Shown here: piece by piece, positions 15,001 through 46,178 of the stretch | Layout of the letters: each line of letters opens with the position of its first letter | How positions within the stretch are numbered: the first letter of the stretch is position 1 | From: Candidatus Omnitrophota bacterium | GTDB lineage: Bacteria > Omnitrophota > Gorgyraeia > Zapsychrales > Zapsychraceae | DNA: 64,000 bases | Reading direction: 5' to 3' | NCBI GenBank assembly: GCA_050250375.1 | Contig: JBFWOS010000003.1 | Location: 739,359-803,358, forward strand | Position numbers and translations under genes: made by a program | Notes under the pieces: model-generated | What the model was told of the DNA's origin: nothing | Databases searched by the model: none | Seen by the model: only the letters and a program-made list of their open reading frames with translations

Positions 15001-15241
15001 TAACTAAAGATACAGCCCTCATCCACGACTTAAATCGACTTCGAAAACGAACATCAGATCTATTAGATTGGACATATGGGCCAAGATCTAACTGATTTTG
15101 ATACACGATTCCCGCATCATTATCAGCAAAATTTAACTCCAAAGATTTCATTTGGGATAAATCTTGCCAATCATCGGATTTCGGTTTTTTTAAGTTACCC
15201 CGATTGATATCTAAATTGTCCTCTTCAGAACCCATATCCAT
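1..15241 (-). CDS. Giant protein, edge-truncated (C-terminus off window; more than 5,080 aa in window). N-terminal TM helix, Gly/Asn/Thr low-complexity linker, long Gly/Ala-rich hydrophobic (glycine-zipper-like) segments, and Walker A GATGSGKSS near the window edge.
   Basis: Manual translation from ATG at 15241 (MDMGSEEDNLDINRGNLKKPKSDDWQDL...AVSLVIILVFVPEQASWAF...) runs to position 1 without a stop. The ORF track has no long ORF in any frame over 1..15.2 kb, as expected if the only long frame hits the window edge. The P-loop at 656..682 was translated base by base: MSGEAGKGEIYSVAGATGSGKSSV. Confidence 0.7.
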   Translation of the reverse strand, partial: MDMGSEEDNLDINRGNLKKPKSDDWQDLSQMKSLELNFADNDAGIVYQNQLDLGPYVQSNRSDVRFRSRFKSWMRAVSLVIILVFVPEQASWAFNYNPLVLWGDKSVYPSQTTSHIQGESSSDLVSNKISKSIKNLLDQIAYQENSRVKLELPKSSNKNNEIYSILLENNNNFNDSYISQITNWLTNPEIHPLNCGVYSLKDILKSYEFDIELEELSVTSLTVDLMSNIVKPGEKKLKTSLYSISKIVNAYGLNFKNAKLAPEDVVKLEPPFIASFKNEHFVTVTAIDDNKIYYNDIGLPVYLAKDVFISELSGFVLAKNLENKKDLEIEFIPDSMAAFVWGDKWRDQSDDLPGLVSSSEEWSGVITTLVIIVVTWGIGQALTAAAEAAKAANEMSKLAQLLAKLAELFSSSAGAFDSFASFAAAFNFSYGLSQFASAVATVCYMKGVCNENQAMLLNMAIAVGGSLFKGAALKVGGEQAAAGTAKSATLSATFGQIFSQVAQQLPAALAYSLTSMYVQKLVAEELSKMFIDDEDDSLGILEQAFVGIVSGAIGNFAGDIASTPFDYFMETGVGAGRQGGLEKNNGTNRNTNNTNGSSGGDTASGGAANAPAGTTNSGGFGQYFTDRLTASFSLQLDFIIDRLFGLAIKMAVIEAFDKLFNKKLEPDSLALMVLESVIRTTIAWGKEVLAENHAKAQLENDTRPLSNNPEEAKRQAQERYNEYLSTSKKMSFFSLLGFSWGIGGESATQTASASGESVLSERSTEASIANATRTEEERRSAITGTARANLISEVTNQASKDNMLGLSAILFSGLVRYFVATGLDRWEDSATTSDRAGINQLDRQKMAGIRFTGLLILGALDVGIGTAADAIISNRRGAIARELALANNPDLTSQQLDDIEQTAERSQYVDMGAVIASCKGKEASCISTEINNQYNSTYGGIWGDMAVRAIQEIGQPLFGALVAMGTLNGTDPTNMLQRDLYERGGADATMSDAEMTVRSRNALMGRWMQQADMAGIWGSPIRVAQFQRNRELTEKRMKERNQELIEMGYASEVKSDDDIHNQVITSLFNQINPLNNMSNYFYDTFNSYIGEYLIGGNSPGLRGVEELITMGGVLFGAYDATASDVNATLNTLRSSSVNIQNPTFVDAVLASNTVNILGENSAFTKSLNTLGIQARAPTRWSFALRDAAGVESRQTYLFGGHYGFEFDQNNPSETGVGYRADFIGFGQNGLNMVDRLGGGTLRFKMIQRFDPLVLSSVFGLTSETAGVWNGGRFTSMQDMYDGQYMFQRDDDGYLYRVNSTTGERVRIDQDGELALLTNQDTQIQALVDPAFISYMNANGVDVEISEGRLMNRRGEEFQFGALRTSTQGKTGNTPDNFILTNNKVVGSESEAFARSIVAYRNAISEGKSKDDALYLSQRAYRDALFEPGPPIGFRRAIGWDRNEAEQFAAGRLNLERLRRERDGEEFTIEQQREFVAQQYSARLAHNREIESRGDVYTVFGGARVRAPGSSQVVANLNNQLELFVSNNPVVNAQDGITLDASSLTKGISTAAFVTPKEGEEGAGVLKFIGTRRSDFLTLQQTIQIITNDNQETRKAIQGLIGQHYLIAGANPDGNNGVLVRNPESTGLKLERAEELAAAMGIDPAVSGRVNGMLSLARGAYANGISVNINYTASDREEIYSADGKRLLSSRANQFLTAPISFNIGRGGVDLGSSMTIITRDLAGNILYRAQAIRPAATMLAAGPIDENTRASLRALGINEAFLQGLTGGDGMIATQVILADAINPNDPTLSRNADGTINIEKVINGRAFYDVFILDKNGNQVLASGAPVTTSIRTSPADSDPNSVPETRESVLAAGTPLASRALFSEGIINPDKANQMGQARLGARNADGTLIQEPQLNPEDLGNSLFRLRYNPETDRVVRAGITQGFLGYDNSAAARSMFVTNSVYSTIAPFLRAPVTESNQNRSNEVKTEATIAQALRPDPAGEAAINGLVILGLRDRYDQAYVEPFDFYGESAFQQNYGIKIGMGSVIRTSNIVRDGNDQLVRRDPVFGKNPFQQVYYNPTTNALYQDDQGMPVYGQVEQGTVYIIRPVREGGSPDGQIIGAEMVQPNELNRGALALSLSGRASTRIGEGASAVREAGYVAVANRGRPFVYDGDRKEWITVDPTNRGEAYVISQQDVVVSDASQERRLASEVSAETMAGGGLTPRREAYLALFSGIRRDGPTGLMIFTPAERQNGQQNQILISDAMGAISARSIISETVNAGLTYHTLTGVVTAGSPGLERTIRPEDQVRNPEFIRRTARGESTEGVQEFITQAEAIKNELRASTQSTEAESEAEPQRDNQSGSEAATLNVPIDTDGTATITAASPGINLATGRFEMLLANNSLVPLTGNIKQGNLTVDPINGDVRMGRLFNSTSPEFNGRTETQGGTVWMTVNRRSIGGIDANGRFNMRSESQGDFYNVEQAVARAIAGTENATGFGADRPPALPEGAVPSNVGFGISELRIVGTRTIREGGLIRSARYFDGTIVASPEASMSMEAGEIVASRGNNTPDSRRDASGPVYYTALGQAVDFIRGRSGEEVSTFNLARVGDGNKLFIGASDGVQVIRDYLDPDKNKNPNAPNPPAEQRTTDSRDPGQTAVVESLDEGGGRGLVLLRAGRQASADAQTIKNNVLATDSDPRAEGDQFYQAGGVNTETALFYGITDQGMTFNEFMSNSNYFFKHEPNAAINRANQLIVSNSVSQVIANERGGGTAQVSQTNKLSTNAGGSIISMDARGNSRYYNFTNQWSMYADNVRIVGDLVDDGRLINFRDNGETLTSADGGFATYLNNPTGEVWSNYSRRGGIERAVTYITGRNNVYLYRDRTGKLRDALILQGGEVFVNASALPGANAQQNVVREDIRRSDNTKIGEVVVDRETGVIRVQMNDGRTYDINGRTASGQLDENVARTQAREVAARVRQDATADGRLEAGYRESSPDIFLDRGKENVIQTTRVRGEGETVLTKIILGSDGRLSLAIGSTQQDDPTIQPTPSDLPGRIFSRDENKEIVIRLDSTLRAEGSTGNVMQDFPLWGQDSTTIVDRNFEMKYYAGADSERGIPRAGVFPEFSQAKSITLSNAGGITDRAPVLLYGVTRRGTTEQVIYAFLGGETNVESILERNFENIYYGDDQATINRHTRMRGDLIQNLSFVKEGDEVHAVINSFGLEVNGRLINGALISTPQGRKFFPNYQAQRIRGIEVTDPDGTKRTVGGMTMYTLVRDNREGNPFNLPDVLYFNENGTSATREQFAAAFYSQSREFHTIVQSERYRQITESLLQDAQNELALEDERSALARTLSAKEDQVDSLNSQIRAIIRSGRHWTDYFANSGGGDMGMGVGPYDYVDIDQLAIDRLSPTDRQRLTQLKEQRAALQQEVASIHNFEGALQRAKNFFFARSTVFGNDDDLLFDGSMLGQSSEEQIGLARILTSSSDRDRYYSIRENAIDGISFTLDSGAINPAYVDAMRRVNREQMDLVLSKMSVDQMMQYGTPMLAVNDAVTWSELGGYTLIVGGAIFGIVSTFFDPSVAGSKVLAGGLIATGVAATSVIGADILKHGETGRHLTGGEIALYGVLGAITPLRFGFLGTVGTATTRYTTTAMLTAGTYTLARVGIQNAPNLARVVGFLELSAATSALATGLGASYNVMSGGWDNIGNNLGNWALVGASAPLSVLAVGRGLTMLGGGVKAGAAAEAGAATVAATPGLLTRAFTYVGGARGAAVASALTSTSARNLFVGARDFGLIAGLGNQAGYLGGVIASGKDFSGYEFIKSFAQGYGAGFAGALVVGGLGLGLLKTAAGQRFMNIYTLGLKETATFQDFLIAGRALNLQNTKILGISMTEATRRVIMTRALPGGVFNMARGAGADFARDGQHNNGIGATAGDFLVGAALGTVLGGRNLPGILSRGRLGTNMQALQMGGGQIFKLFGQEVAVKRGVGSLLGPRFALMGALGAHAETYYKIDKDGKPVEYGLTGYLLNAAAGYFVSSYFGGSSLAEAIGISMPKTEVVGSVNRMAAWAKGVNPQGLPLRDSLLLSSSTKQGLGKFFTNETLGGYIARQSALGSGSGALLGYGVGVSANLANGKSVSESLLSGNTLLYALGGGAIGGVMGAMRGGLQFARQQVLGELAKEQLSLRVLLDNPQLVRSVTMFGAADFALIMPAFAAMTVPVEGIITSSMGNDNKTMAQHFRGALNKLFLVDAQGREIGIFNSMLVHMLSGFDMGTDIALPLALGQKRLSSIAFARTTATGETKYVAGAFDTLMAHPYMHSQLATVAKLTSIHQITANMIRGNDLFIQSIQSSAPAAAEQALREENSRRRSRGYEELTGADAAQFKANAERNYVDQKVDEMASQVAFYSLPGFAAGGRGRTIPGLEEGPLAGGSGAGITPSTRRGPTGIGSGETGSVGSRTGFEADQLGLALTSGGRGVFEVTIQQAKDLHSRGNVEGADILEQALRFAPEKTTNVDQIMADSKGQAEQTSGTPLSRSQAEQLAAQNAEFNGWRSAQVSELREWRANNPTTNMASDSSTGASDGARSLTNSQVEMLVNTQIVRLEAQGGGRENWTETRQQLGQGTSPLSVREFRDSNGQLRVRITEGNAIEVYEYIDPLASSAESIGRSGLWYSQQGSGSNGRTRTVLIHNGEGSVRLHEISEMARTRQKDMMDLGKVVVSAEVADRLSTSTPHDFVENVLGYVGEAGQGRTIAEKASGLQPRAPDSPLKLPDILTPPITGPPTGILSTTLPFLMSRRGTSAETSTSRLRVGASDGLKDKQRTTEDELVGPLRNAMQKGRNQEQVNMDAALKDQLDYQLDLVERQVMSGEAGKGEIYSVAGATGSGKSSVSVPAIAAELKVRYEQLSQKLGRKLQAPFVLSVETDASQLRQNSEQTAIWAGRIRTGELLSGKEGPQLSVQRLELSRMTPEQIIEAIKTGDVGHITNIDLKTLLGTGYEKSFREAIAERGIDLHVGEDLAMAALSMSKEGGNAVKQKMAENFESTFERLQKDNIKLEAQATPIITESGDVIFIDLSSSKGETPQGRRVNLNLEHSPEAERIALDLAG

Positions 15242-16841
15242 AGCCTTTTATGTCCAATCTAAGCACCCCAACGACATAATTTTTTAGGACTATCCATACA
15301 CACCCAAACCAGCCCCATACTTACGGATCGTGAATTTAGCACCACCCCTAAAAACACAAATTTTAACAAAGAATACATGAATTCAAGTTTTTTATATAAA
15401 CTAACCGCACCCTTGTTATAAATGACCATATTCGACCTTACCTTGGACAGATTGATTTAAAGACAAAAAAAATGACCACCCTTTTTGAGGTAGCCATTAT
15501 AAATTGACGCTGACTGGATTGAAAAAATTGAATTTTGGTTAAGGATCTATTCATTCTTATCCCTTTTCGTCAATCTAGCGTTGATTTATCTTAAGATCGA
15601 AATTTGGGAATTTATAACGATAAAAGCGCAAATTATGTTTATTCCCCTATAACTTGAGTATAATATATTATAACTGTCGGAACACAATGTTTCAAGTTTT
15701 TTTATACTTAAAAATCTTTTATTTTCAAAGATTTACAACATTTTAATGGCGAAATGAATATTTATTTTCTGCAACAAAATTTAATTCAATTTTTTTATTA
15801 ATACAATAAACTAAAATAAATTTTTAAGAATTATATATATAAAATATACTATATTTATGTATATATCAAGAAAAATTTCAAATATTTTTTAGAGATACAT
15901 CTTTTGAAGAATTAATCGTCGACGATAAAATTTAATTTTTGAGATTTTAGTAAATATTTTCTTGAAATTAATTTTTTAAAGTTAATTTCTATTTGATTTT
16001 TTATGTTTAAACTAAATACCTTCTTTTTCTTTTTTTAAAATATTCAAACTAGCAACTCCGAAGTTTCTTTTTTCGATGAACCCTCAATAATGTCCATTCT
16101 GCGCTCTAGTATGGCCTATTTTTAATTTTTTTATTTTGGACAATAGATTCTATGACTCCCTCTATTTCTTTCAAAATTAGGCCAAATAAGCGAAAAATAG
16201 AGCCATTTAAAATTCAAGTGCCCTGCTTGCATTGATTATTTCGTTTTTTTATGCCCCATATGTTGTATTAAATCTTTTGTTGGGCTCAGTATCTGGTGCC
16301 TACACTAGTTCGATTTTGAAATCCCCCCCCTAATTACAACCATCTTGATATATTTGGTGTTAAGTATCGCGTTTAATTCTTTATAAAAATGACGGCCCTA
16401 TTAAACTTAAAATGAATTAACAGAATTTTTAATCATTTTATAATTTTTGCATAAACATATAATTTAATATAAAAACCTGTGCTTCTAGAAAATCTACCTG
16501 GGGTAATTATTGGGCATATTTCAGTAAGAATAATAATGCTTTAAACAAATATTTCTGTTCTTTTACATATCGCAATATTCGCATCTAAAAGCCAACCATA
16601 ACACCTAATGTATCTATATCATTCACTATATATATTTAATTAAAATTTCTGATTAAAAGTGCTACCCAACACCATAAATACTTATGTACAAGATGACTTA
16701 TTAAAAATATTAATAAACATGGTTATTCCTATTTAAATGTTAGTTATTAAAAACTTATAAATTTTGAAATTTAAGAAAGAAATCTAATAATCCACGATCA
16801 GAAAATAACAATCAAGTAGGGATAATAAAATTTCGACAGGA
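15242..16841. other. 1.6 kb AT-rich non-coding region between the Tad locus 3' end and the giant gene 5' end; contains a C8 homopolymer at 16323..16330.
   Basis: No ORF of 60 aa or more in any frame; extreme AT content; runs of A/T; poly-C tract read directly. Confidence 0.5.
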
Positions 16842-17723
16842 TTATCCGCCGGAAAGATGTTCGAATGGATTGTTTTCGACAAAATCTAATAGGATGGGAC
16901 CTGCAACAAGAATACCAACAACAGGAAAGATAAAAAGTAACAAGGGCACCAACATTTTCATAGGTGCTTTGAGAGCCAATTGTTCCCCTCTACGATACCT
17001 CGCAAGCCGCATATCTTCTGAAAGAATATTTAACGCTTCGGTTACGGAGGTCCCCATTTTATCAGCTTGAATTAATGTGCGAGAAAAAGTCGATAAATCT
17101 GGCAATTCATACCTTGCTGCCAAATCTTTTATTGCATCTCTTCGGGTCTTTCCAACATTAATTTCTTGAAGGACAACGTTTAATTCATCAATCATAACTG
17201 ACGGCGGCGACTTTTCAACAACCCATTTCAATGAAAGCATAAAGTCCAACCCTGCATTGACACACAACCCGAGCAAATCAATAGCATCCGGCAACTCTTT
17301 GACTATAATCGCCTTAACTTTTTTGATTTTTCCGCGTATTAGCATTTCTGGAAGAAGGTATCCGACCCCGAGACTCATAAATAACCAAAACATCATCATA
17401 TCAGGGTTAATTGCAGGAAATGTTACGAATAGTACTAATATAATACATAATTCTTTGGCGAGTATAAATTCTTCAGGCGTAATATTAATATGCGCTACAG
17501 CCAAATCCTTTTCAATTCTCTGTCGCATGGCACCTTGACAAACAGGTTTATTCAATTTTGCCACAATTCTTACAACTGAAGATAAACTCTTCTTCTTCTT
17601 TGGGGCTGTCGGCTGTATCCCTAATGCACTTAGAGTTGGTCTATGTTCCCATTCAACAGGAATTAGCCCTAGGATAAAGAAAAATATACATAAATAAGTG
17701 TTAATTAACAATATCGTGAACAC
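16842..17723 (-). CDS. tadC: Tad pilus inner-membrane platform protein TadC (T2SS-F domain)
   Basis: 293 aa, multiple TM helices, GspF/TadC-like C-terminal region (…TSVTEALNILSEDMRLARYRRGEQLALKAPMKMLVPLLLFIFPVVGIL…); adjacent to the tadB-like gene. Confidence 0.75.
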   Translation of the reverse strand: MFTILLINTYLCIFFFILGLIPVEWEHRPTLSALGIQPTAPKKKKSLSSVVRIVAKLNKPVCQGAMRQRIEKDLAVAHINITPEEFILAKELCIILVLFVTFPAINPDMMMFWLFMSLGVGYLLPEMLIRGKIKKVKAIIVKELPDAIDLLGLCVNAGLDFMLSLKWVVEKSPPSVMIDELNVVLQEINVGKTRRDAIKDLAARYELPDLSTFSRTLIQADKMGTSVTEALNILSEDMRLARYRRGEQLALKAPMKMLVPLLLFIFPVVGILVAGPILLDFVENNPFEHLSGG

Positions 17724-17725: not shown

Positions 17726-18583
17726 TTAAAAGTCCTTGAAAGTACTAATTTTCCACACCATATATGCTCCAAACGACCAAGAAAATCCAGCATAAATTAG
17801 CATTGTTCTACCTAATTTTGACGTGAACATATTATCAAACATTTGCGGATTGGTTGAATATATAACAAAACCGAAGCCGATAGGAAGTAAAGTTAGTACT
17901 GCGCCCTGAATTTTACCTTGAAGCGTTAGTGTATCCAAATTTTGTTGTATTTTTCTGCTTTCACGGATATTTGTAACAATGCGATTAAAAATTACAGGTA
18001 GGTTTCCGCCCGTTTCTCTTGCTAATAAGATAGCGGTAATCATTTGTTGTAATGCTATGGAGGACATCCTGTTATATAAATGATTTAGAGCTTCTTCTAA
18101 TGAAACTCCCATCTTATTTTCACCTAAGACAATCCCAAACTCTTTTCGAATGGGATCCGGCATTTCTTGTTCAACAGCTTCCATTGCCTGCACCAAACTC
18201 AATCCGCCCCGAAAAGAACTCGACATAATCATTAGCGCATCAATCAATTGACCGTCAAATTTATCCCGGTTCTTTTTGGTTAACATTTGTATATAAATAC
18301 CCGGAAATAAAAGGCCCAAAATGACGCCAAAAATAATCCCAAAAAATCGCATTTCCTCTGGAAAAATGAAATAAAACCCTGCTGCCAATATTAATGGAGC
18401 TAAAATAAATACACGACTAAGCTTCCTAGCATCTGTACGGGACATCAACTTTTCCATGTTATTGGATAGCTTTTGTTGACGGCGCTCGCTAATCACTGCG
18501 GTTCTGCTATAAACACTAGGAATAAGTTGATAGCCAATTAATGTTACTGTCGCAAATACTAATAATAAAATAATTATTAACAT
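17726..18583 (-). CDS. tadB: Tad pilus inner-membrane platform protein TadB (T2SS-F domain)
   Basis: 285 aa, T2SS-F-like (…GVSLEEALNHLYNRMSSIALQQMITAILLARETGGNLPVIFNRI…), TM helices; position in the Tad locus. Confidence 0.75.
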   Translation of the reverse strand: MLIIILLLVFATVTLIGYQLIPSVYSRTAVISERRQQKLSNNMEKLMSRTDARKLSRVFILAPLILAAGFYFIFPEEMRFFGIIFGVILGLLFPGIYIQMLTKKNRDKFDGQLIDALMIMSSSFRGGLSLVQAMEAVEQEMPDPIRKEFGIVLGENKMGVSLEEALNHLYNRMSSIALQQMITAILLARETGGNLPVIFNRIVTNIRESRKIQQNLDTLTLQGKIQGAVLTLLPIGFGFVIYSTNPQMFDNMFTSKLGRTMLIYAGFSWSFGAYMVWKISTFKDF

Positions 18584-18741: not shown

Positions 18742-19101
18742 TTAAAGATTGCACACATCTCTGCCCCCATAACTTGAACGACAAGTTGTATTAATACATT
18801 CTTGGCAATCAATCGGGTTGGCTGTTTCCGCAACGCAATCTGGCTCACCACATGTAGCATCAAAACAAACCGCGTTATACCATAAACCTGTATTTTGCCA
18901 CCGATCGTATCCACATTCGATTGTAAGGTTTGGATCATATAGTCGACCATGACCTATCGAATCACCCACCCCTTTCCATCTCCCATATATGCCTCTTGCT
19001 ATATATTTTTGAAAGATTAACATAGCTGTCAATACAAACATTAATAATGCAATAATTTCAATTACAGATTGCGCTTTATTTGCATAAAATTTTTTTAACA
19101 T
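18742..19101 (-). CDS. Long Flp/TadE-like prepilin paralog with Cys-rich C-terminal tail
   Basis: Start placed at the internal Met (MLKKFYANKAQSVIEIIALLMFVLTAML…ARGIYGRWKGVGDSIGHGRLYDP), which aligns with the neighbouring Flp-like paralogs (KRGIQGRWKDSVDELADQYDP). C-terminus is CGYDRWQNTGLWYNAVCFDATCGEPDCVAETANPIDCQECINTTC. The longer 160-aa ORF would overlap the upstream gene. Confidence 0.5.
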   Translation of the reverse strand: MLKKFYANKAQSVIEIIALLMFVLTAMLIFQKYIARGIYGRWKGVGDSIGHGRLYDPNLTIECGYDRWQNTGLWYNAVCFDATCGEPDCVAETANPIDCQECINTTCRSSYGGRDVCNL

Positions 19102-19120
19102 AATGATCCCAAAATAATTT

Positions 19121-22100
19121 TTAAAAACCTGCCGCCGGACAGTCAATGAACGAAAATGTAAGGCCTGGTCGAACGCCGTCTTTATAATAATATTGTGCAC
19201 ATGTTTCCGATGCAATCCCCGCATTTGCTAAGATCGCATGCGAACGGTTCCAACAATTCCAATTATTTCCTGGCGCATCATCCCCCCCACAATCTGCTAA
19301 ACAGTTTCCAGAACAGGCGGGACACCCCGGCCCTCCACAGGCGGCAACACAGGCCGGTGGAGCTGCTGGGCCCGCCCCTATTCTTTTATTCATCAAAAAT
19401 GCCCCTTTAAAAGTATCGGGAGGAACAGCGGGATCAGTGATCATAATTGGCTCACAGGTAGAACCCAATGTTGCTGCGCTCATGTCCGCCCGCCCCGGAT
19501 TTGGATGAAAATATTTAAATTTCCATAACGGTTGTCCATTTGGAAAAACTAGCCCGGTGCCTGCGGTAGAATTAGGACTTTCATCAAATCTTGTAACTCT
19601 GAATTTTACAATACCATCTGTGTTAACCAACTCATAACACCTCTTAAATCCGCCCTTCTCAGTATAAGTGCGAACTTTTGGCCACTCCGGATCCGGACCT
19701 CCGCCTAAACCACAGGCATTATCACATCTTTTCGGCATTCTTCCTTCCACTTTCGTTATGTGCCAATAAGATTCTCCTCCCGGCGCGCCTAATCTAAACT
19801 GTGGTGGAATTTCGTCTTGCCAGCCATAAACTACGTGAAACGGAAAGGCATCCGGCGGATCTGCATCATAATCAAATCGTGCTTGAATTAAGTCCGCAAC
19901 TGGACCAGTTAAAAAGTCACTAAATCGATTACTTGCGGTAATTAAAAATGGTATGTGACTATTCAAATCCGTCGATATGCTACTTAAATAATCTCGACGC
20001 ATCTCTAATTTTTTACTGTGATTTTGTGCCTCTATTGCGGCTGTTCCTGTTAACTGTAACCAACCCCCAGAATTTATATCACAGATGGGATTAGCTTGAA
20101 CCAATGCATCCCTAACTAAGGTCCTAAAATTGTTTGTATTATTTAATGCGAACCCTGTACAATCAACAAATTGATCAAAAGTTCCAATAGTCGCTTGATA
20201 TGGATACGCCGCTGCCGTTGAACTTTGAGTTGCTGGCATCGCTGTACAAGAAACATTCGAGCAATTATAAACACATTGCAACATCGCCAACATATCTGGC
20301 TCATCCGCAGGATCTGCAGCCACATACGCACTTGGATCATACGTTGCCAAAGGAATAACTGAACGCGGAAGATTACTACAATTAGCTGAGCTACAAGTTA
20401 ACATACATTGCAAATATCTCCAGGTATTTCCTTGATTAGTGCCCGGACCATTAACACAACTTATATCCGGTACGCCACCATTACAAGCATAATCATACCC
20501 TTCCACATTAAAATTCATACAGGCGACAATATCTTCTAAGTCACCATCAATACCATTTCCGTTGGCATCAAAAGTAACCTCCTCATAAGGTGATACACCT
20601 GGACATCCCCTCGGGGGAATACACCACGGCGATCCACAGGCTGCACCTTGAAAACTTTGATCTCTTAAGTTAACCAACTCATCCTTAATTAATTCAATAT
20701 TGTTATGCCATATATAAAGCTTACCTGGCTGGGTTTGACACGCATTGGCTGTTACAGGATCATAATCACTATCCCACGGATAACATTGCCCGTATGGGTT
20801 CGGTGCAGACGCAGGAAAAGTGACTCCAGCTAATGGCCCTGGATCAATCCAAGCCTGCCAATCATTGAACCATTCTGTAAATTTTTGGGATAGTTGGGCC
20901 CTACTCGTTCCGAGTAGTTTATTTGCTTCTGCTATAAAAACAGTTAAATCATAGACCATATCATCTAACAAATCCTCCGGAAATAATGCGGGAGCTACAT
21001 CTAGAGGATTTGCCGCGGATGGATCTCCGCATTCGCATAAAGCAGGAATCGGATTGTTAGATGAATCGCATTCCGCAGGACAATCTGCAACCCCATTCCT
21101 ATTTGGATCCAGAAAACAATTACCATCATAATACTTTCGACACTGACCTTCATACGGCCAAGCAGTATCACCACCTATATCTCCTTCAGAACAAAACCGA
21201 TCAGCCCCTCGTTTCCAAAACGGTCCACCACCATAACTATAAGGATCCGCGCAAATATCCTGACTCATTTCAAATGAACCGGTTAAAGCCAACGTAACAT
21301 CATCAATATCTGTATCAACACAATAAGATGTTTGATATGTCAACGCCAATGGATTTTGAACCAAATCTAACTGTGTCATTAAATAAGGAAGGTTTGGATT
21401 ACATACTACTCCTCGATTAGCGTCGCACCATTTGCACCTTTGATCATTCGGATTATCAACGGGTTCTGGCGAACCTCCCGTTATAACATCGTCTAAATCA
21501 AACCCCCAATCACTAACCATATAAAGGAAAGGAAAGATTCCTATACGATTTTCAGCAACAGCTGGAGGAACAACAGTTAAACCTGAATAAAATCCAGTTG
21601 TGTCGTCTACATAATAGCCCGACCCATTCCATGGTGGTGCAAATTGTTGCGCCCAATTCGGGTCGCTCGAATCTTTGAAATATAACTGATGTTCATCATC
21701 TCTCCCGATTAATTCTCTAAATGAAAAAAAGGCATTTTCGTAATCTTCAACATAAACATCATATACCCATTGATAAAAAGTTCCAAGTGTTGGCTCTATA
21801 GCTCCATATGGACTTAAAGCCTGACAGGTTGAAGCCGTACCACACTCCAAACTAGGATTAACTGTTCCACAATTTGGATCAAAACCACAATAATCGGGAT
21901 TAGTTACAGTGATCGTATTTCCAGGGTTTGTTGGATCTGGAATATCTATTGTTGGGGGTTTTGTACAACAATCACAACAACCAGGTCTAATAGGTAATTG
22001 TCCAAACGCAGGTCCACGGGGATCAGGGGATGTCTCCGGTAAACAGCATGAACTACAAACAGATGGTATGGCTGCTGGATTAATAAAACAGGGGTGTGTT

Positions 22101-23002
22101 GGATTAGCCGCTTTATTAAATCCAAAACTGATCGGTGGAGTACCTGGAAAACTTGGCCCAGGAATATATCCTTGAGGAAGAGGATCATATAGCCCCCAGG
22201 CTGTTTGACAAGTTCCGGCAACACATTCTTCACTTGGAGCACATAATGCCCCCCCACCACAATCTGTAGTTGTTCCAGGCATTGGACCATACGGGGGCAA
22301 TTGATACACAAAATTTTGCAACTCTATTTGAAAAACTTCTGCTTCAAGGATAAAATTAATAACAATTCCCTCAAAAACTTTGTTCCAATAAAGTGAAAAA
22401 CGACTAACCACATCGTGAGCTTGCCCCAAACCATCTAAGCCAAAAGAGCCATCTGTATCAAAATCATACAAATCAGGAACTTGTTTTGAATCATTAGTCG
22501 AATTTTGCATAGAATTTCGTAAAGCTGATTCCATGAATTGATCAACCAACGGCAATATTTCGGCTGCTAAGCTGTTCCAAGCACTTGTAATGCCTGGTTG
22601 AATAACTGTAACCTGAAGGACAACATTCGCCACAGACAGTACCGCTCCAACAACAGCCAAGGCAACATAAGCCGTCGCTCCTACAGTATAAATAGCTACA
22701 ACTAACAAGATAATCGCAATGATGGCGCCTACAATTGCCCCTAAAAGGCCAGTAGAGGCACATTTTTTTCTTTCTCCTCCCAACTGTGTCATTAATAGAG
22801 AATGACCATAGCTTGCCATAGCGGACGCTAAGGATGCAGCCCCTTGATTAGAGCCGATCTGTGTTGATGTCTTATTTTGACCTACTCGACCTAAATTAAG
22901 CGTAACCGCATAAAATATCAAAGCAAAAGCAACTATAAGCAAAATAACAACTGAAACTTGGCCATTTTTTTTAATTAATGATTTTTTTGAAAAAATGTGC
23001 AT
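19121..23002 (-). CDS. 1293-aa TadG-like pilus-associated protein. N-terminal TadE/G-type hydrophobic segment plus extra TM helices; extremely Cys/Pro/Gly/Asp-rich extracellular region.
   Basis: N-term KKNGQVSVVILLIVAFALIFYAV resembles the TadE/TadG N-domain but lacks Glu at +5. More than 60 Cys arranged in CxxC/CC/CxC clusters (e.g. CSSCCLPETSPDP…PGCCDCCTKPP; C-terminus CVAACGGPGCPACSGNCLADCGG). Sits between the tadB/C genes and the TadE-like genes. Confidence 0.6.
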   Translation of the reverse strand: MHIFSKKSLIKKNGQVSVVILLIVAFALIFYAVTLNLGRVGQNKTSTQIGSNQGAASLASAMASYGHSLLMTQLGGERKKCASTGLLGAIVGAIIAIILLVVAIYTVGATAYVALAVVGAVLSVANVVLQVTVIQPGITSAWNSLAAEILPLVDQFMESALRNSMQNSTNDSKQVPDLYDFDTDGSFGLDGLGQAHDVVSRFSLYWNKVFEGIVINFILEAEVFQIELQNFVYQLPPYGPMPGTTTDCGGGALCAPSEECVAGTCQTAWGLYDPLPQGYIPGPSFPGTPPISFGFNKAANPTHPCFINPAAIPSVCSSCCLPETSPDPRGPAFGQLPIRPGCCDCCTKPPTIDIPDPTNPGNTITVTNPDYCGFDPNCGTVNPSLECGTASTCQALSPYGAIEPTLGTFYQWVYDVYVEDYENAFFSFRELIGRDDEHQLYFKDSSDPNWAQQFAPPWNGSGYYVDDTTGFYSGLTVVPPAVAENRIGIFPFLYMVSDWGFDLDDVITGGSPEPVDNPNDQRCKWCDANRGVVCNPNLPYLMTQLDLVQNPLALTYQTSYCVDTDIDDVTLALTGSFEMSQDICADPYSYGGGPFWKRGADRFCSEGDIGGDTAWPYEGQCRKYYDGNCFLDPNRNGVADCPAECDSSNNPIPALCECGDPSAANPLDVAPALFPEDLLDDMVYDLTVFIAEANKLLGTSRAQLSQKFTEWFNDWQAWIDPGPLAGVTFPASAPNPYGQCYPWDSDYDPVTANACQTQPGKLYIWHNNIELIKDELVNLRDQSFQGAACGSPWCIPPRGCPGVSPYEEVTFDANGNGIDGDLEDIVACMNFNVEGYDYACNGGVPDISCVNGPGTNQGNTWRYLQCMLTCSSANCSNLPRSVIPLATYDPSAYVAADPADEPDMLAMLQCVYNCSNVSCTAMPATQSSTAAAYPYQATIGTFDQFVDCTGFALNNTNNFRTLVRDALVQANPICDINSGGWLQLTGTAAIEAQNHSKKLEMRRDYLSSISTDLNSHIPFLITASNRFSDFLTGPVADLIQARFDYDADPPDAFPFHVVYGWQDEIPPQFRLGAPGGESYWHITKVEGRMPKRCDNACGLGGGPDPEWPKVRTYTEKGGFKRCYELVNTDGIVKFRVTRFDESPNSTAGTGLVFPNGQPLWKFKYFHPNPGRADMSAATLGSTCEPIMITDPAVPPDTFKGAFLMNKRIGAGPAAPPACVAACGGPGCPACSGNCLADCGGDDAPGNNWNCWNRSHAILANAGIASETCAQYYYKDGVRPGLTFSFIDCPAAGF

Positions 23003-23020: not shown

Positions 23021-23299
23021 TTAATTTGTCCAAATTGCGTTCATATCTGAACCACCTGAAAAATAAGGAGAAATTTGTTTTATTTGCTCACTATCCGCGG
23101 GATCAACATAACCTCTAGTTCCTGTAGATCTTAATACTGTGTCATGCTTTTGCCTTCGGTCGGTAAACTCCCTTCCGCTCCATTCAAAAATTTTTGTAAG
23201 TGAATAAATCATTAAGAAAACTATAATCATGCACAAAGTAAATTCAATCATTACTTGACCAAGTTTTTTTGATCTATCTTTCCTTTGCAAGCGCAACAT
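23021..23299 (-). CDS. tadE: TadE-like minor pseudopilin
   Basis: 92 aa; N-term KKLGQVMIEFTLCMIIVFLMIY has the class-III prepilin G/xxxxEF motif followed by a TM helix. Confidence 0.65.
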   Translation of the reverse strand: MLRLQRKDRSKKLGQVMIEFTLCMIIVFLMIYSLTKIFEWSGREFTDRRQKHDTVLRSTGTRGYVDPADSEQIKQISPYFSGGSDMNAIWTN

Positions 23300-23325: not shown

Positions 23326-24618
23326 TTATTTCAAATATTGCACATTTGGATCATTGTCCGTGGGGGTAATCCATTTCCTTCCATGTTTATCTACAATTCG
23401 ACTTCTAACAAAAATAATAGGATCTAAGGTTCCTGGTCCGGCTGTAACCATGCATGTTCTGGTAAAATTAGCAGCATTAAAACAGCATAAATTATCCGGA
23501 CAGCAAACTTCTACAGGATTTGTAATAGATGCTGTCCAACCCGCTTGATTTCCTAAAATTGTTCCGGGCAAAACAACCGTTGTCCCATCACAAAATCTGC
23601 GAGTATCATAGCTTAATTGTAATGTACGCTGAATAATATCTACTGAATCCTTCCTTTGAGCTGATCGTACATATCTTCTAGTATCCCCGCTAACTTCATA
23701 CAATTTCCCTTCATCAATTAATAAGTACGTTCCTACGCCATCCCCGGAAGCCAAGGGATTTTTACTATAAGTGTACATTTGAACATCCTGATTTGAAAAA
23801 CCAGGCGATGGCCGGGTTTCATCAGGGCTAAAGGATAGATCCCCTTCCTGAAAATCCATAACATCGACCGAAATATTCCCATTCTTTCCTAAAACTCTCT
23901 CTGTAAAACCATCGCCATCCACATCCACTAATGTAAACGCGCCGCTCTCCGTATCTATTTGACTTGGATCTGCAGCAATCCACTGCCACCAAAATGCATC
24001 ACAATTCGTATTATCAACGCCATCGTCCAATAAACCATTTTGATCCAAATCAAATCTGTAATGTGTCACTCCCCCAACGACATCAAAACAACTATTTACA
24101 TTACCACCACATCTACAAAAATCTGTAGCAGGATGATTATATTGCTGCTTAAAAACTCCCTGATTAAGGGGATATGTCCTTAAGCTTGCCGCTGTTAAAG
24201 GAAAATGAACTCCATTTACAAAAAAATCAGTCATCGGTAAATTTGCAAACTCCCCTGGATCCACGGGCATAAATAAATTTCTGGAATGTGAGGCGGAACC
24301 AGTCGCTATTTGAGGCGTTCGATCAATCGCACCATATTTCGCTGATTGTGCAGTTAAACGATCTTCCAAAATAAACACTGTGGCAGAATTACGAGAGGCC
24401 GTTCCATCTTGCCAATTTCCTGGTGGAGCTTTTATTCCCTCACTATACTCAAATGAAGTTAACATAGCCATTCTAAAGGCCTTTAAACGAGTATCTTGCT
24501 GGTAAGAAGAACCTAAAATTGTCCTTACAATAAGTCCCACCAAAAATATTACGACCGCCCCAAATACGGCCAATTCTAATGTTGTCTGTGCTTTTTGCAT
24601 ATAATTAAAAGTCATCAA
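23326..24618 (-). CDS. Large (430 aa) TadE/pseudopilin-like protein with Asp-rich putative Ca-binding repeats
   Basis: N-term KAQTTLELAVFGAVVIFLVGLIV is prepilin-like. C-terminal half has FDLDQNGLLDDGVDNTNCD and VDVDGDGFTE motifs (DxDxDG-type). Confidence 0.55.
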   Translation of the reverse strand: MMTFNYMQKAQTTLELAVFGAVVIFLVGLIVRTILGSSYQQDTRLKAFRMAMLTSFEYSEGIKAPPGNWQDGTASRNSATVFILEDRLTAQSAKYGAIDRTPQIATGSASHSRNLFMPVDPGEFANLPMTDFFVNGVHFPLTAASLRTYPLNQGVFKQQYNHPATDFCRCGGNVNSCFDVVGGVTHYRFDLDQNGLLDDGVDNTNCDAFWWQWIAADPSQIDTESGAFTLVDVDGDGFTERVLGKNGNISVDVMDFQEGDLSFSPDETRPSPGFSNQDVQMYTYSKNPLASGDGVGTYLLIDEGKLYEVSGDTRRYVRSAQRKDSVDIIQRTLQLSYDTRRFCDGTTVVLPGTILGNQAGWTASITNPVEVCCPDNLCCFNAANFTRTCMVTAGPGTLDPIIFVRSRIVDKHGRKWITPTDNDPNVQYLK

Positions 24619-24627: not shown

Positions 24628-24942
24628 TTAATATGCCCCGACGGCAATTGATCCCCTTCTTAAATCCAAAGAATTAGTGCTGTCAATTCTTGTCGTTTGT
24701 AGCCCCAACGGCGTGTCGATTGAAAACAAAGTTGTTTCTGTATTTGATAATAATGTATGAAGTACGCTCGTATTAGCCGTTCTTGGATCATATTGATCAG
24801 CCAATTCATCTACTGAATCTTTCCAGCGCCCCTGAATACCTCTTTTGAAATAATTAGATGAAGCCAATAGTGCCCCCATAATGATGATCAATAAAACAGA
24901 ATATTCTATTGCGGATTGCCCTTTTTTTAATTTTTTTAACAT
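24628..24942 (-). CDS. Flp-like prepilin paralog (104 aa)
   Basis: MLKKLKKGQSAIEYSVLLIIIMGALLA: class-III signal G/QSAIEY plus TM helix; conserved KRGIQGRWKD segment; SD upstream. Confidence 0.65.
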   Translation of the reverse strand: MLKKLKKGQSAIEYSVLLIIIMGALLASSNYFKRGIQGRWKDSVDELADQYDPRTANTSVLHTLLSNTETTLFSIDTPLGLQTTRIDSTNSLDLRRGSIAVGAY

Positions 24943-24957
24943 AATAAATCCCCATTT

Positions 24958-25308
24958 TTAATTAGGATTTGGTTGTACCCCTAAATTAATTACTGCATTA
25001 GTATAAATAAACACAACATCATCATACACATAGTTCATAACGCCGGCTACATCATTCGTTCGTTTATTGACATCGGCTCTTGAAATCGAAAATGAACTAT
25101 CCAAATGGCTTTGAGACATATCATTAAATCTCTGATCCGCTAAATTCTGAACACCAATTTGATCAGCTACAAGCTTAGTCCATCCTTGCGAGGACCTTCT
25201 AACCATCGGCCCCATAGCGGCCATAATCGCAATTATTGTTGCTAGAATAATTGTGTACTCTATCGCCGATTGTGCTAACCGCTTTTTGTATTTAGTTAAT
25301 CTAAGCAT
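24958..25308 (-). CDS. Flp-like prepilin paralog (116 aa)
   Basis: KKRLAQSAIEYTIILATIIAIMAAMG: A/QSAIEY motif plus TM helix. Confidence 0.6.
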   Translation of the reverse strand: MLRLTKYKKRLAQSAIEYTIILATIIAIMAAMGPMVRRSSQGWTKLVADQIGVQNLADQRFNDMSQSHLDSSFSISRADVNKRTNDVAGVMNYVYDDVVFIYTNAVINLGVQPNPN

Positions 25309-25313
25309 ATATT

Positions 25314-25709
25314 TTAATCAGCATTTACTGGAGACGCCGTCGTGCTGACTGAACCCGTACTTGTCGTTTCACTTAAACTTTTACGAAATATTCCAGATGA
25401 CAATGGATACGAAGGTAAATCTTGACTGATATTGTCTACGGTTCGTACAACATCAGATACGCTACTAGTATAATAGGGTTCATATTGTATATATACGTTT
25501 GTGCCAGCATAGGCAGTACCAACACGCGTTCTGACAGTATTCAACATAGAATTGTGCGCGTCTCTTACTCTAGCCTGAATAGCTCTTCTGAAATATGCTG
25601 ACATCCCGGAAATTACTGCAATTGCAACAAAAAAAACAATAACATATTCACTTGAAATCATTTGAGCTTTTTGGCTTATAATTTTTTTGTTTTTAAGAAT
25701 TCTAAGCAT
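25314..25709 (-). CDS. Flp-like prepilin paralog (131 aa), divergent
   Basis: SQKAQMISSEYVIVFFVAIAVISGMSAYFRRAIQARVRDA: prepilin-like motif with 6-residue spacing; shares the RRAIQARVRDA segment with the 26283 gene. Confidence 0.5.
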   Translation of the reverse strand: MLRILKNKKIISQKAQMISSEYVIVFFVAIAVISGMSAYFRRAIQARVRDAHNSMLNTVRTRVGTAYAGTNVYIQYEPYYTSSVSDVVRTVDNISQDLPSYPLSSGIFRKSLSETTSTGSVSTTASPVNAD

Positions 25710-25784
25710 AATTAGTTAATAACCCTGATACTAATATTATACATTACTACTCATAAAAACACCAAAATTAATTATAGTCATTGA

Positions 25785-25842
25785 AAGTTTTAAAAACAAA
25801 ACATGGCTTACCTGAGAAAATTTACTTCTCAAGTAAGCCATG
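25785..25842 (-). terminator. Strong hairpin plus U-tract inside the pilin gene array (intrinsic terminator/attenuator)
   Basis: catggcttacctgagaa / ttctcaagtaagccatg form a 17-bp stem with one mismatch and a 7-nt loop (25802..25842). On the minus strand it is followed by TTTTGTTTTT. Lies about 45 nt downstream of the stop of gene 25889..26218. Confidence 0.55.
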
Positions 25843-25888
25843 CATTGTGAATGTTTTTTAATAACATATTGTGATTAATTACACAATA

Positions 25889-26218
25889 TTAGTTACCCCA
25901 AAACTCCTGATTAACGTTCATAACTGATGAATTCATCAGATCAGTTGTTACTTCAGCTTTTGTTAAAGTTGATTGCGTAACGCCTGACAAGAACGTATCT
26001 TGTGTTTGAGATGAAGTAACCATTTTCTTAATAACATTAGTATTACCTGTTGAGAATTGGTCACCGATGTCATCAGCAGCACTCTTCAATCGTCCTTGAA
26101 CACCACGTTTGATGTATACCTGGATAGACAAAAGGGCACCGATAATGATGATAATCAGAATCGCATATTCCAATGTACTCTGACCTTTTTTTCTATTTTT
26201 GTTAAAATACTTAAGCAT
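25889..26218 (-). CDS. Flp-like prepilin paralog (109 aa)
   Basis: KKGQSTLEYAILIIIIIGALLSIQVYIKRGVQGRLK; AGGAGG SD 8-12 nt upstream. Confidence 0.65.
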   Translation of the reverse strand: MLKYFNKNRKKGQSTLEYAILIIIIIGALLSIQVYIKRGVQGRLKSAADDIGDQFSTGNTNVIKKMVTSSQTQDTFLSGVTQSTLTKAEVTTDLMNSSVMNVNQEFWGN

Positions 26219-26282
26219 TGATATATCCTCCTAAATTAATCCTCTAACATAATCGCAGAGGGATTAAGTTATTAACTTCTGA

Positions 26283-26642
26283 TTACAGACCTTGAATTAA
26301 CCCCAGGGTTGTATTATATGACGATTGTTGAAAACCACCAATACCTCTACTTCGTTGGTCTTCTAACTCTGTGCGTGTCGTAGTATTGTCCAATAATTGA
26401 GATTGAACTGAGTTAGTACTAACTAGGTAGTTTGTTGTTAAGTAGTATGGTTCATACTGGTTTGTTGTACCCAATGCCGCTGATTGCGTAGTTAGATACT
26501 GCCCAGCATCACGAACCCTCGCTTGTAGAGCGCGTTGAGCGTATGTCTGCATCGCAATAATACCCGCAACAACCAGAGAGATAAGGATTGCATATTCAGC
26601 GGTATTTTGCGCCTTTTTATTTTTAATTAACTTTCTAAACAT
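26283..26642 (-). CDS. Flp-like prepilin paralog (119 aa)
   Basis: KKAQNTAEYAILISLVVAGIIAMQTYAQRALQARVRDA; AGGAGG SD upstream. Confidence 0.6.
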   Translation of the reverse strand: MFRKLIKNKKAQNTAEYAILISLVVAGIIAMQTYAQRALQARVRDAGQYLTTQSAALGTTNQYEPYYLTTNYLVSTNSVQSQLLDNTTTRTELEDQRSRGIGGFQQSSYNTTLGLIQGL

Positions 26643-26691
26643 TTATTTATCCTCCTAAGATTAAATTCACAAAAAATTGAATTTTCGAGCA

Positions 26692-26913
26692 TTAGTTAGA
26701 TGTAGGCCGTGATGTAAGTAATCGGTTGGCCATATCTTCCATACCATTGGTGCCCGTAGCTAATGTACCGTTAAACGCCGTTCGGAAAATACCACCAGGC
26801 CCTAGAAAAACAAGTAGGGCAGCCAAAACAGCAGCTACCAAGATGATATACTCAACGGTACTCTGACCTTTCTTTTTCTTTTTAGGGTTATTCACAATAT
26901 TCCTTTTAAGCAT
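26692..26913 (-). CDS. Flp-family pilin (73 aa)
   Basis: KKKKKGQSTVEYIILVAAVLAALLVFLGPGG: classic Flp G/xxxxEY plus TM; AGGAGG SD. Confidence 0.7.
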   Translation of the reverse strand: MLKRNIVNNPKKKKKGQSTVEYIILVAAVLAALLVFLGPGGIFRTAFNGTLATGTNGMEDMANRLLTSRPTSN

Positions 26914-26970
26914 TGTATTCCTCCTTAAAAAAGTTCACTTTAGGATAATCTCCGTTGGAAAAATAACGGA

Positions 26971-27138
26971 TTACTGATTTCTGGATTCTTGAAGTATTAT
27001 CTGTTGTGTAGCTTGAACCGATCTAAATACATAGGTACTCATGGCAATAGCCGCTGCTGCCACAATAGTTGCGATTAAGGCATATTCTAATATGCTTTGG
27101 CCTGTTTTGTTGTTTCTAATTTCTTGTTTTAGCCTCAT
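26971..27138 (-). CDS. flp: Flp pilin (55 aa). Not in the ORF track because it is under 60 aa; first gene of the pilin array.
   Basis: Manual translation: MRLKQEIRNNKTGQSILEYALIATIVAAAAIAMSTYVFRSVQATQQIILQESRNQ. Textbook Flp size and motif. Confidence 0.7.
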   Translation of the reverse strand: MRLKQEIRNNKTGQSILEYALIATIVAAAAIAMSTYVFRSVQATQQIILQESRNQ

Positions 27139-27313
27139 CGTAACCACCTTATGTACTTCTCAGATAATCTTTGCTCTTATCACATTATTTTGCGACTGAA
27201 TCCTAAGAGCTATATTGCCAAATCTAGGTATAAAATAACCCTAGACTTGACACTTCAAAATGACCCAAAAGTCATTCTGAAGAATAAAACACCTAATCAG
27301 GTGTGCACAACTC

Positions 27314-29248: not shown

Positions 29249-29315
29249 AATTATTTCAACGTTCCAGATTGGACAAAAACTTAGTATAACAAGAGTTTTC
29301 AAGGCGGTCAATGAC

Positions 29316-29657
29316 TTACTGAAAGATAATTTTGTCCCCCAATTCACTTTTTGATATAGAAATGGCTCCAACCGGTAATTCAATCGCAACCGAAGCATTC
29401 CAATAAATCCTACTCATTTGATTAGGTTTTATATTTTTGATTAAACCAACTACTTTCTTTGAATTATTAACAAAAATTACGTCTATTGCAAATTTCATAA
29501 AAAACATATGAATAGAATTACACCGGGTAATAACTAGCGCCTCATTGTTTAAAAGTTGTTCATGTTTCAGCAATCCAATCATTCTGGACAAAAATGTATC
29601 TGCGATTTTTGCTTTGTTTGCAATAACCGTTTTTTTCGAATCATTAAAAATAATCAT
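29316..29657 (-). CDS. DUF192 (COG1430) family protein
   Basis: 113 aa; …FLSRMIGLLKHEQL…ALVITRCNSIHMFFMKFAIDVIFVN… matches the DUF192 signature pattern (GLMGR…C.SIHTFFMRFPIDV.F) as I recall it. Confidence 0.5.
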   Translation of the reverse strand: MIIFNDSKKTVIANKAKIADTFLSRMIGLLKHEQLLNNEALVITRCNSIHMFFMKFAIDVIFVNNSKKVVGLIKNIKPNQMSRIYWNASVAIELPVGAISISKSELGDKIIFQ

Positions 29658-46030: not shown

Positions 46031-46178
46031 TTATTAACACCTCGTTTATCTAAAATTTTAGTTAAAACTAGTTGTAATATTAGTAGTGGCTGTGAATTTT
46101 TATAATATACTTCTAAGTTATTCGTTATTAATATTTTGTAGAGTTTTTATCTGTTAATAACCTCTTTAAAAAAAGTTA

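Follow-up and report, generated by a model that had tools for sequence, protein, structure and literature searches.

The 64,000-nucleotide (nt) stretch of Candidatus Omnitrophota DNA analysed here (the window, whose coordinates are used throughout) encodes a cysteine-rich, TadG-like protein of 1293 amino acids (aa), referred to below as the target protein. We consider it probable, with moderate confidence, that this protein is a large cap minor pilin of the TadG/CpaL/KilN type, which would start the assembly of a Tad pilus and carry a variable binding domain. With the same moderate confidence we assign to it, as the large minor pilin of an Omnitrophota Tad (type IVc) pilus, the function that TadG/CpaL/KilN, and GspK/PilK elsewhere among type IV filaments, fulfil. 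A role as tip adhesin is suggested by analogy to KilN and CpaL. Established directly in this analysis are the context of the locus, the signature of the N-terminus, the lack of Glu5, the statistics on disulfides and a confident fold without a solved relative. The elements of the gene are given below, with residues numbered on the 1293-aa protein including its leader.

19121-23002, minus strand: Cys-rich TadG-like protein, 1293 aa, ATG start (open reading frame and translation; stop codon 19121-19123)
22961-23002, minus strand: prepilin-type basic leader MHIFSKKSLIKKNG, aa 1-14, ending in the conserved Gly (pattern in 128 relatives)
22781-22960, minus strand: pilin-like alpha1, aa 15-74, with a hydrophobic alpha1N (aa 15-36) and an amphipathic remainder (AlphaFold, PF13400 alignment)
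22604-22759, minus strand: helical hairpin, hydrophobic and conserved, aa 82-133, with a basic cluster and C81 in front (hydropathy, two helices in the model)
19124-22603, minus strand: disulfide-rich ectodomain (aa 134-1293) whose C-terminal beta-strand region is conserved (AlphaFold, Cys statistics)
22208-22261, minus strand: lineage-specific four-Cys insert, aa 248-265 (rarity among relatives)
20078-20455, minus strand: hypervariable insertion hot-spot, aa 850-975, with two CX3CX4C helix motifs at aa 866-875 and 910-919 (insert counts)
19289-19351, minus strand: lineage-specific six-Cys insert CVAACGGPGCPACSGNCLADC, aa 1218-1238 (rarity among relatives)

A 1293-aa protein with 58 cysteines

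An open reading frame (ORF) of 1293 aa at 19121-23002 had been proposed in an earlier inspection of the letters of the window (the original prediction). It is real, with the correction that it is read on the minus strand. A 100% identical protein is present in a metagenome-assembled genome (MAG) of Candidatus Omnitrophota at NCBI, where it is annotated as 'hypothetical protein'. The composition (Ala 9.0%, Gly 9.0%, Pro 8.5%, Asp 7.2%, Asn 5.9%, Cys 4.5%) agrees with the long Pro/Gly/Asp/Asn-rich region described in the original prediction. Likewise, all four Cys clusters quoted there were found in the translation, namely CSSCCLPETSPDP (aa 316-328), PGCCDCCTKPP (aa 341-351), CAECDSSNNPIPALCECGDPS (aa 641-661) and CVAACGGPGCPACSGNCLADCGG (aa 1218-1240). 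Hydropathy yields three hydrophobic segments at ~aa 14-36, 82-104 and 106-128, matching the expected N-terminal segment and two more. The count of more than 60 cysteines has to be lowered to 58. One of these, C81, is located just N-terminal of the hydrophobic hairpin and the other 57 lie beyond residue 248. Compared to a Cys content of 0.79% in the remaining proteins of the window, 58 cysteines in 1293 residues correspond to a binomial P of 2.6e-25. Self-BLAST revealed no internal repeats, and no Pfam or NCBIfam model matches the full-length protein.

A prepilin-type N-terminus lacking Glu5

The N-terminus was compared in 128 relatives. All of them show a leader of 5-56 aa with a mean net charge of +5, always G then Q, and ~20 hydrophobic residues after this junction. 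Judged from the pattern, the G↓Q junction together with the variable leader length looks like a maintained cleavage site, and the target protein is predicted to be cut, probably, at G14↓Q15 by a prepilin peptidase. AlphaFold folds aa 16-74 into one unbroken helix of 59 residues, with a predicted local distance difference test (pLDDT) of 80-92 across the first 50 residues.

PF13400 ('Tad', TadE/G-like) is the top Pfam family among 34 N-termini of the family, with matches in 13 of them and a best E of 2.5e-5. Its alignment on the family N-termini begins exactly at the conserved Gly and is in register; in the target protein it extends from G14 to residue 53 on model positions 1-39. Full-length Pfam scans of the target protein and its homologs gave no PF13400 match. 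A word-index search with a 79-aa N-terminal profile returned three fragments of the same family only, and no annotated TadG was linked by it. The rank of PF13400 and the position of the gene between TadE/F-like pseudopilins and tadB/tadC support the earlier designation as TadG-like.

Glu is found at position +5 in none of the 128 family members (0/128), the residue there being Ile, Val, Leu, Met or Ala. It is present in the 430-, 92- and 119-aa proteins encoded next to the target gene, in their homologs and in the Flp paralogs. Priming and tip complexes contain one subunit without Glu5 and several with it, whereby the Glu5-less GspK/PilK sits on top. As the target protein lacks Glu5, it would occupy the top-most position of such a priming complex.

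A disulfide-rich ectodomain without a solved relative

The ectodomain was modelled with AlphaFold (aa 130-1293, alignment of 62 sequences) and reached a mean pLDDT of 85.5 and a predicted template modelling score (pTM) of 0.83. It consists of mixed alpha/beta parts, two helix-turns with CX3CX4C (aa 866-875 and 910-919), a helix of 67 residues (aa 981-1047) and a beta-rich C-terminal region that closes in conserved strands. The extreme C-terminus is conserved across the family. A fold search of the PDB with this model found no solved structure resembling the ectodomain, and PDB sequence profile searches with the ectodomain and with the N-terminus returned nothing meaningful. The modelling that had been suggested along with the original prediction thus gave a confident structure without PDB relative. 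An unrelated, well-characterised non-pilus family had been named as the finding that would speak against it; no characterised family matches the protein by sequence or PDB fold.

The mature protein contains an even number of cysteines in 99 of the 114 full-length relatives, with a range from 30 to 83. Moreover, in 106 aligned relatives the variable Cys columns come and go as reciprocal best pairs: phi is 1.0 for 260-265, 0.83 for 342-387, 0.76 for 526-561 and 0.75 for 789-800, followed by 523-534 and 740-755 (0.64 each) and 629-656 (0.53). About 31 of the 58 cysteines are kept in at least 90% of these relatives. The cluster at aa 248-265 occurs in ~7-8% of them and its four cysteines co-occur (phi 0.8-1.0), while the cysteines of the cluster at aa 1218-1238 are shared by 2-4 homologs among the first 16 and by ~2-7% of the 106 relatives. 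In the alignments, the two most striking Cys clusters are inserts restricted to close relatives, each with an even Cys number.

Because the Cys counts are even and cysteines are gained and lost in pairs, disulfides are indicated and metal sites are unlikely. These patterns support that the Cys-rich part is extracytoplasmic and disulfide-bonded. The ectodomain ends outside the cytoplasm whether the hairpin described below spans the membrane or not. The disulfide-knotted modules of the original prediction are well in line with the even counts and the paired gain and loss; a cytoplasmic Cys-rich region, which would have spoken against it, is not what these patterns indicate.

Metal-binding modules had been offered alongside. 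According to this explanation the CC, CxC and CxxC clusters bind metal or Fe-S or act in redox chemistry, such that the protein would be an extracellular metal-binding or electron-transfer module. CCDCC, CKWC, CPAEC and the CxxC runs at aa 1218-1238 are indeed superficially similar to metal sites. Yet even Cys numbers and reciprocal pairwise gain and loss speak otherwise, the densest clusters are inserts present in less than 10% of the relatives, His makes up just 0.9% of the target protein, and neither a metallothionein, ferredoxin, cytochrome nor any other metal-site family is matched in Pfam or NCBIfam. We thus regard such a module as extremely improbable. The comparison with EGF-like, keratin-associated and metallothionein patterns proposed earlier was carried out on 16 members and gave no EGF, metallothionein or keratin-type Pfam match at E up to 1.

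Variation is concentrated in one part of the ectodomain. The region aa 850-975 receives most inserted residues per relative, between and after the CX3CX4C motifs, and inserts of at least 10 aa within aa 900-924 alone occur in 55 relatives. One relative, P0016 of locus L004, shows a sub-threshold GH115_C-like beta-sandwich in an insert (aa 1049-1157 of P0016, E 0.0025); this weak, carbohydrate-binding-like beta-sandwich falls in the hypervariable region.

A conserved hydrophobic hairpin behind alpha1

In 66 relatives the hairpin has a median length of 56 residues, a mean hydropathy of 2.0, a Gly+Ala content of 25% and a median of one charged residue. C81 in front of it is invariant in the first 16 homologs and kept to at least 90% in wider alignments. 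Faint matches on the hairpin were obtained for SseC (E 0.55, 10 bits, cut-off 30) and PRK15374 (SipB/IpaB-type; E 0.008, 15 bits, cut-off 828). We rejected an identity as translocator of a type III secretion system (T3SS), as these scores are far under the cut-offs and probably driven by composition.

Several observations weigh against the interpretation as cap minor pilin. The target protein itself scores 12 bits with PF13400 (E 0.28), below the gathering cut-off of 22.3 bits. No pilin or GspK/PilK-like structure among the solved ones matches either AlphaFold model in the fold search. Neither a prepilin peptidase nor a disulfide-forming enzyme is found among the genes of the window. Moreover, the conserved hydrophobic hairpin of ~56 residues follows directly behind alpha1 and no such hairpin is reported for TadG, CpaL or KilN in the literature searched. 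In a pilus it would need to be extracted from the membrane along with alpha1, unless the complex buries it.

The main rival explanation is a resident inner-membrane protein. Here, alpha1 and the hairpin would form a permanent three-helix anchor and the disulfide-rich domain would stay in the periplasm, never entering the fibre. The protein could then be a part of the machine, e.g. a scaffold or gate joining the Tad platform to the secretin or to giant-protein export. Such an anchor would suit a hairpin that is conserved, strongly hydrophobic, almost uncharged and preceded by a basic cluster. It would also suit that no pilin-like globular or beta module is recognised behind alpha1, where the model continues with the helical hairpin and then more helices. 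The strict linkage to the giant gene described below also fits the handling of the giant protein. On the other hand, the prepilin-type leader with its conserved G↓Q and variable length has the appearance of a maintained cleavage site, and one Glu5-less subunit next to three with Glu5 matches known priming complexes. A hypervariable hot-spot is better expected on an exposed, target-facing surface than on a machine part, and TadG was detected in pilus preparations (PMC12607857). We judge a resident protein to be rather unlikely.

If the protein is instead the cap minor pilin, one further role of the hairpin can be envisaged, which we regard as quite doubtful: being Gly/Ala-rich, nearly uncharged and placed behind the Glu5-less alpha1 of the tip-most subunit, it might be a membrane-insertion device. 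If true, the tip-borne hairpin would enter the host's or prey's envelope or membrane, similar to the hairpin of a translocon or a fusion peptide. The ultra-small Omnitrophota cell would thereby be anchored to its host, or a route would open for the giant protein, and a type IV pilus tip would penetrate membranes, beyond mere sticking.

A fixed member of a Tad locus linked to a giant gene

The target gene is part of a Tad locus with the following genes:

34490-35440, minus strand: SurA-like peptidyl-prolyl isomerase, head of the locus (Pfam Rotamase_2 1.4e-19)
33593-34474, minus strand: RcpC/CpaB (Pfam RcpC 4.1e-24)
31914-33590, minus strand: RcpA-type secretin with C-terminal TonB_C (Pfam Secretin 1.6e-39, TonB_C 5e-15)
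29688-31853, minus strand: TadZ-TadA fusion ATPase (ParA/MinD-like plus T2SSE), 721 aa (Pfam T2SSE 1.4e-58, AAA_31; NCBIfam TadA-family 1.8e-96)
29316-29657, minus strand: DUF192 protein (Pfam)
27539-29398, minus strand: conserved 619-aa protein, function not assigned (position kept in related loci)
24628-27147, minus strand: seven tandem Flp-type pilin genes, G/A↓Q-x-x-x-E-Y, no Cys, 58-131 aa (sequence motif), at 24628-24942, 24958-25308, 25314-25709, 25889-26218, 26283-26642, 26692-26913 and 26971-27147
23326-24618, minus strand: 430-aa pilin-like protein, putative TadF/KilL equivalent, with 10 Cys and Glu5 (KA↓QTTLE) (directly upstream of the 92-aa gene, conserved)
23021-23299, minus strand: 92-aa TadE-like pseudopilin, LG↓QVMIEF (PF07811 TadE weak, E 0.014; conserved position)
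18742-19101, minus strand: 119-aa minor-pilin-like protein with Glu5 (KA↓QSVIE) and 8-Cys tail (sequence; directly downstream of the target gene)
17726-18583, minus strand: TadB platform protein (Pfam T2SSF)
16842-17723, minus strand: TadC platform protein (Pfam T2SSF)
1-15241, minus strand: giant gene, 5' part, more than 5080 codons open up to the edge of the window (C39 peptidase domain close to the N-terminus)

Gene order was compared for related loci in which each gene falls inside the fetched stretch. The order TadZA, DUF192, 619-aa, pilins, 430-aa, 92-aa, target, 119-aa, TadB, TadC, giant gene is conserved. A homolog of the target protein is present in every related locus covering its position, and in 29 of the ~32 loci reaching far enough TadC is followed by a homolog of the giant-gene N-terminus. 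One locus, L004, has a pilin block with TadB/TadC and no giant gene. In this locus (JGI metagenome 3300076001) the target family is represented by P0016 (10001-14863), a divergent member of 1620 aa beside pilin-like genes and TadB/TadC. A secretin is likewise missing within 10 kb, and the neighbours differ (sigma-70/RskA, PALP enzymes).

The closest neighbours of the target gene share its theme. The 119-aa protein, starting at 19101, holds 8 Cys within its last 57 residues, which agrees with the Cys-rich tail noted earlier for the neighbour at 18742-19101. In most related loci its homolog is encoded immediately downstream of the target homolog, and the five homologs compared have 6-8 Cys. A 160-aa reading of this ORF (18742-19224) was discarded as a mechanical extension that overlaps the target gene; the 119-aa form is preferred because of a typical prepilin leader at its start and no overlap with the target gene. 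The 430-aa protein has no Pfam match. Among the Flp-type paralogs, which number 6-10 in related loci, only the 73-aa protein of 26692-26913 passes the cut-off of PF04021 Class_IIIsignal (E 1.5e-6). Having also the best ribosome-binding site, this gene likely encodes the major pilin.

An alternative not involving a structural subunit is that the target protein is a secreted effector (enzyme or toxin), exported by the Tad-like machine in the manner of a type II secretion system (T2SS). West-Roberts et al. interpret the locus as a type II-like secretion system. The polar residues R201, D435, D436, R1002, Y1059 and H1081, which are invariant in the family, could form an active site. Against this stands that a prepilin-type leader with a hydrophobic alpha1 is unlike T2SS substrates. 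Type II substrates carry Sec or Tat signal peptides. Furthermore, no enzyme or toxin family was found by sequence (Pfam, NCBIfam, PDB) or by fold (PDB), and the gene is located among pilin genes, not apart from them. We consider an effector very unlikely.

With regard to the remaining genes, the TadZ-TadA fusion of 721-722 aa also occurs in the loci L001 and L003. The fusion of secretin and TonB_C is unusual and is found in the secretin of L001 as well. Nearly all related loci keep the 619-aa and DUF192 genes in the interval that separates the ATPase gene from the pilin genes. For the former, Pfam gives a faint match similar to a helix-turn-helix (HTH) only. Its start may be located further downstream, because the two ORFs overlap by 83 nt. 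TadB and TadC match T2SSF with E 1.6e-16 and 5.3e-13, respectively. The giant ORF contains Peptidase_C39 at aa 194-315 and just 5 Cys in 5080 residues (0.1%), as opposed to its Cys-rich pilin-like neighbours; giant genes following TadC in related loci were called at 11,892 to 47,583 aa. Between TadC and the start of the giant gene there is a gap of ~1.6 kb (15242-16841, GC ~0.32) with only a 56-aa ORF inside. It measures 0.3-3 kb in related loci, of which L001 has an 80-aa gene there, and may hold the promoter or a regulatory region of the giant gene.

Genomic setting

The window covers a bacterial chromosome around its likely oriC: one flank carries dnaA, dnaN, dciA, gyrB and gyrA, the opposite flank yidC, parA and parB. 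The sign of the GC skew switches at ~46-48 kb (46000-48300), between dnaA on the minus strand (46179-47516) and yidC on the plus strand (48254-49876), where oriC is likely located according to these sequence features. The locus comprising the Tad genes and the giant gene would thus start ~11 kb from the origin. For V. archaeovorus a Tad locus was reported at 12-30 kb of the chromosome. The window further contains a tRNA-Glu (39507-39583, minus strand), a tRNA-Cys/Leu/Val cluster (54860-55261, plus strand) and, after pheT, a 6S RNA (61993-62147, plus strand, 52.9 bits).

Distribution of the family

A word-index search retrieved 16 relatives, none of them named. HMMER profile searches against 1.84 billion representative proteins (50% identity clusters) gave 460 clusters with E no higher than 1e-3, 294 of which stay at or below 1e-30, and their annotations do not go beyond 'hypothetical protein'. 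In a scan of one genome per GTDB species, 42 family loci were detected. All of them belong to Omnitrophota or are labelled 'uncultured Planctomycetales', 'bacterium' or 'uncultured bacterium', and the relatives with an organism name are all Omnitrophota. A tblastn search of 72,556 plasmids, many with tad loci, found no match. Pfam and NCBIfam scans of 16 homologs and five unusually long homologs gave no significant family.

Comparison with known systems

Upstream of giant genes in Omnitrophota, West-Roberts et al. 2023 (bioRxiv) and Seymour et al. 2023 described a 'type II secretion-like' or Tad locus, and the former also noted the Rotamase_2/SurA-like isomerase gene. The window shares with this locus rcpC, the secretin, gspE-/gspF-like genes, Rotamase_2, small class III signal genes and the C39 giant gene. 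One of these papers calls the remaining locus proteins 'less well conserved', in contrast to the target homologs in every related locus that covers their position. In the passages retrieved from these papers there is no mention of cysteine content, a TadG-like subunit or a pseudopilin, and a protein of 1100-1700 aa is not described; hence, the target protein appears undescribed in the literature on this locus.

The nearest counterpart is KilN of the Kil predation pilus of Myxococcus xanthus, part of the KilL/KilM/KilN 'Tip'. Herrou et al. 2025 (PMC12075869) modelled KilN/TadG as the backbone of disulfide-rich tips in predatory Tad pili (Myxococcus) and found KilN homologs by sequence in myxobacteria only. 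On the cap-pilin interpretation, both are large Tad minor pilins of predatory or host-dependent bacteria with a prepilin-type alpha1, adjacent TadE/TadF-like small minor pilins and a big C-terminal domain without PDB relative, for which many intramolecular disulfides are predicted and whose distal part is variable. In contrast to the myxobacterial KilN homologs, the relatives of the target protein are all Omnitrophota, unnamed or carry generic labels. Compared by description only, the target protein has the extra conserved hydrophobic hairpin behind alpha1. The Omnitrophota locus has four non-Flp partners in all versus three for Kil, and the target gene is fixed beside a giant gene whereas Kil works with a needleless T3SS.

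The earlier statement that no TadG of this composition had been described holds for the protein family, its Cys content and its hairpin, which are mentioned neither by West-Roberts et al. nor by Herrou et al. in their accessible portions. It does not hold for the Tad-like locus and the idea of a large disulfide-rich TadG-like tip, both of which were already published. New are the recognition of a large unnamed family as fixed member of the giant-gene-linked Tad locus, its extreme and strictly paired Cys content, the conserved hydrophobic hairpin and the absence of both a vWA domain and a recognisable pilin head.

With TadG/CpaL of Aggregatibacter actinomycetemcomitans and Caulobacter crescentus the target protein has in common the position in the tad operon, the N-terminal G-hydrophobic segment in PF13400 register, the proposed PilK/GspK-like role as initiator and a conserved C-terminal strand. 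A vWA domain with a MIDAS (an adhesion site that depends on metal ions) is present in CpaL and many TadG proteins and is not universal. Unlike these, the target protein is twice as long, has 58 Cys and a membrane hairpin, stays below the PF13400 cut-off and lacks a vWA domain, for which Pfam gave no match in it and 15 homologs. CpaL (Caulobacter) is ~630 aa long, comprising a pilin module and a vWA domain with MIDAS site, and was modelled at the tip (PMC12607857). Assembly requires a C-terminal beta-strand provided by TadG/CpaL, which takes the place of PilK (PMC12918778).

The caps GspK/PilK (PilX in P. aeruginosa) of T2SS pseudopili and type IVa pili are similar in that the target protein alone lacks Glu5, is the largest of the putative minor pilins and has three partners with Glu5. 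No similarity exists in sequence (Pfam, NCBIfam, PDB) or fold, and the target ectodomain is several-fold larger and disulfide-rich. With PilY1/PilC, the tip adhesins of type IVa pili, it shares a size of ~120 kDa and, if located at the tip, would share a role in both licensing assembly and mediating adhesion; this size is comparable to cargo known to traverse a secretin. PilY1 is not a pilin, having a Sec signal, no alpha1 and a beta-propeller C-terminal domain. The target protein differs by its prepilin-type N-terminus, and no PilC/PilY1 Pfam match was found in it or its homologs.

Proposed assembly and implications

We infer cleavage, incorporation at the tip, binding and cooperation with the giant protein as follows. 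The prepilin-type N-terminus would insert the target protein into the inner membrane, where a TadV-type peptidase would cut at G14↓Q15. The ectodomain of ~1160 residues would fold in the periplasm, held by ~29 disulfide bonds as supported statistically. The protein would then take the top-most place in a priming complex with the Glu5-bearing 430-, 92- and 119-aa proteins. This complex would start Flp polymerisation on the TadZ-TadA/TadB/TadC platform and, carried at the fibre tip, pass out through the RcpA secretin. At the tip, the disulfide-stapled scaffold would present aa 850-975 to the surface of a host or prey cell, and in attachment the pilus may cooperate with the giant surface protein encoded next to it. 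V. archaeovorus expresses its Tad locus when co-cultured with prey (PMC10066038).

Omnitrophota are widespread, ultra-small and uncultivated bacteria that are thought to live on other cells. Apart from the giant gene, the target protein is the largest conserved component of the Tad locus. It represents a rare bacterial scaffold with 15 to 40 disulfides, in a largely anaerobic phylum. The family is a concrete target for antibodies, metaproteomics and cryo-electron tomography. If it forms the pilus tip, type IV filaments would gain a new kind of tip module, with a fold that has no solved relative. Of all candidates for the molecule by which this phylum recognises its hosts, the protein would then be the best one, with the hypervariable region marking host range.

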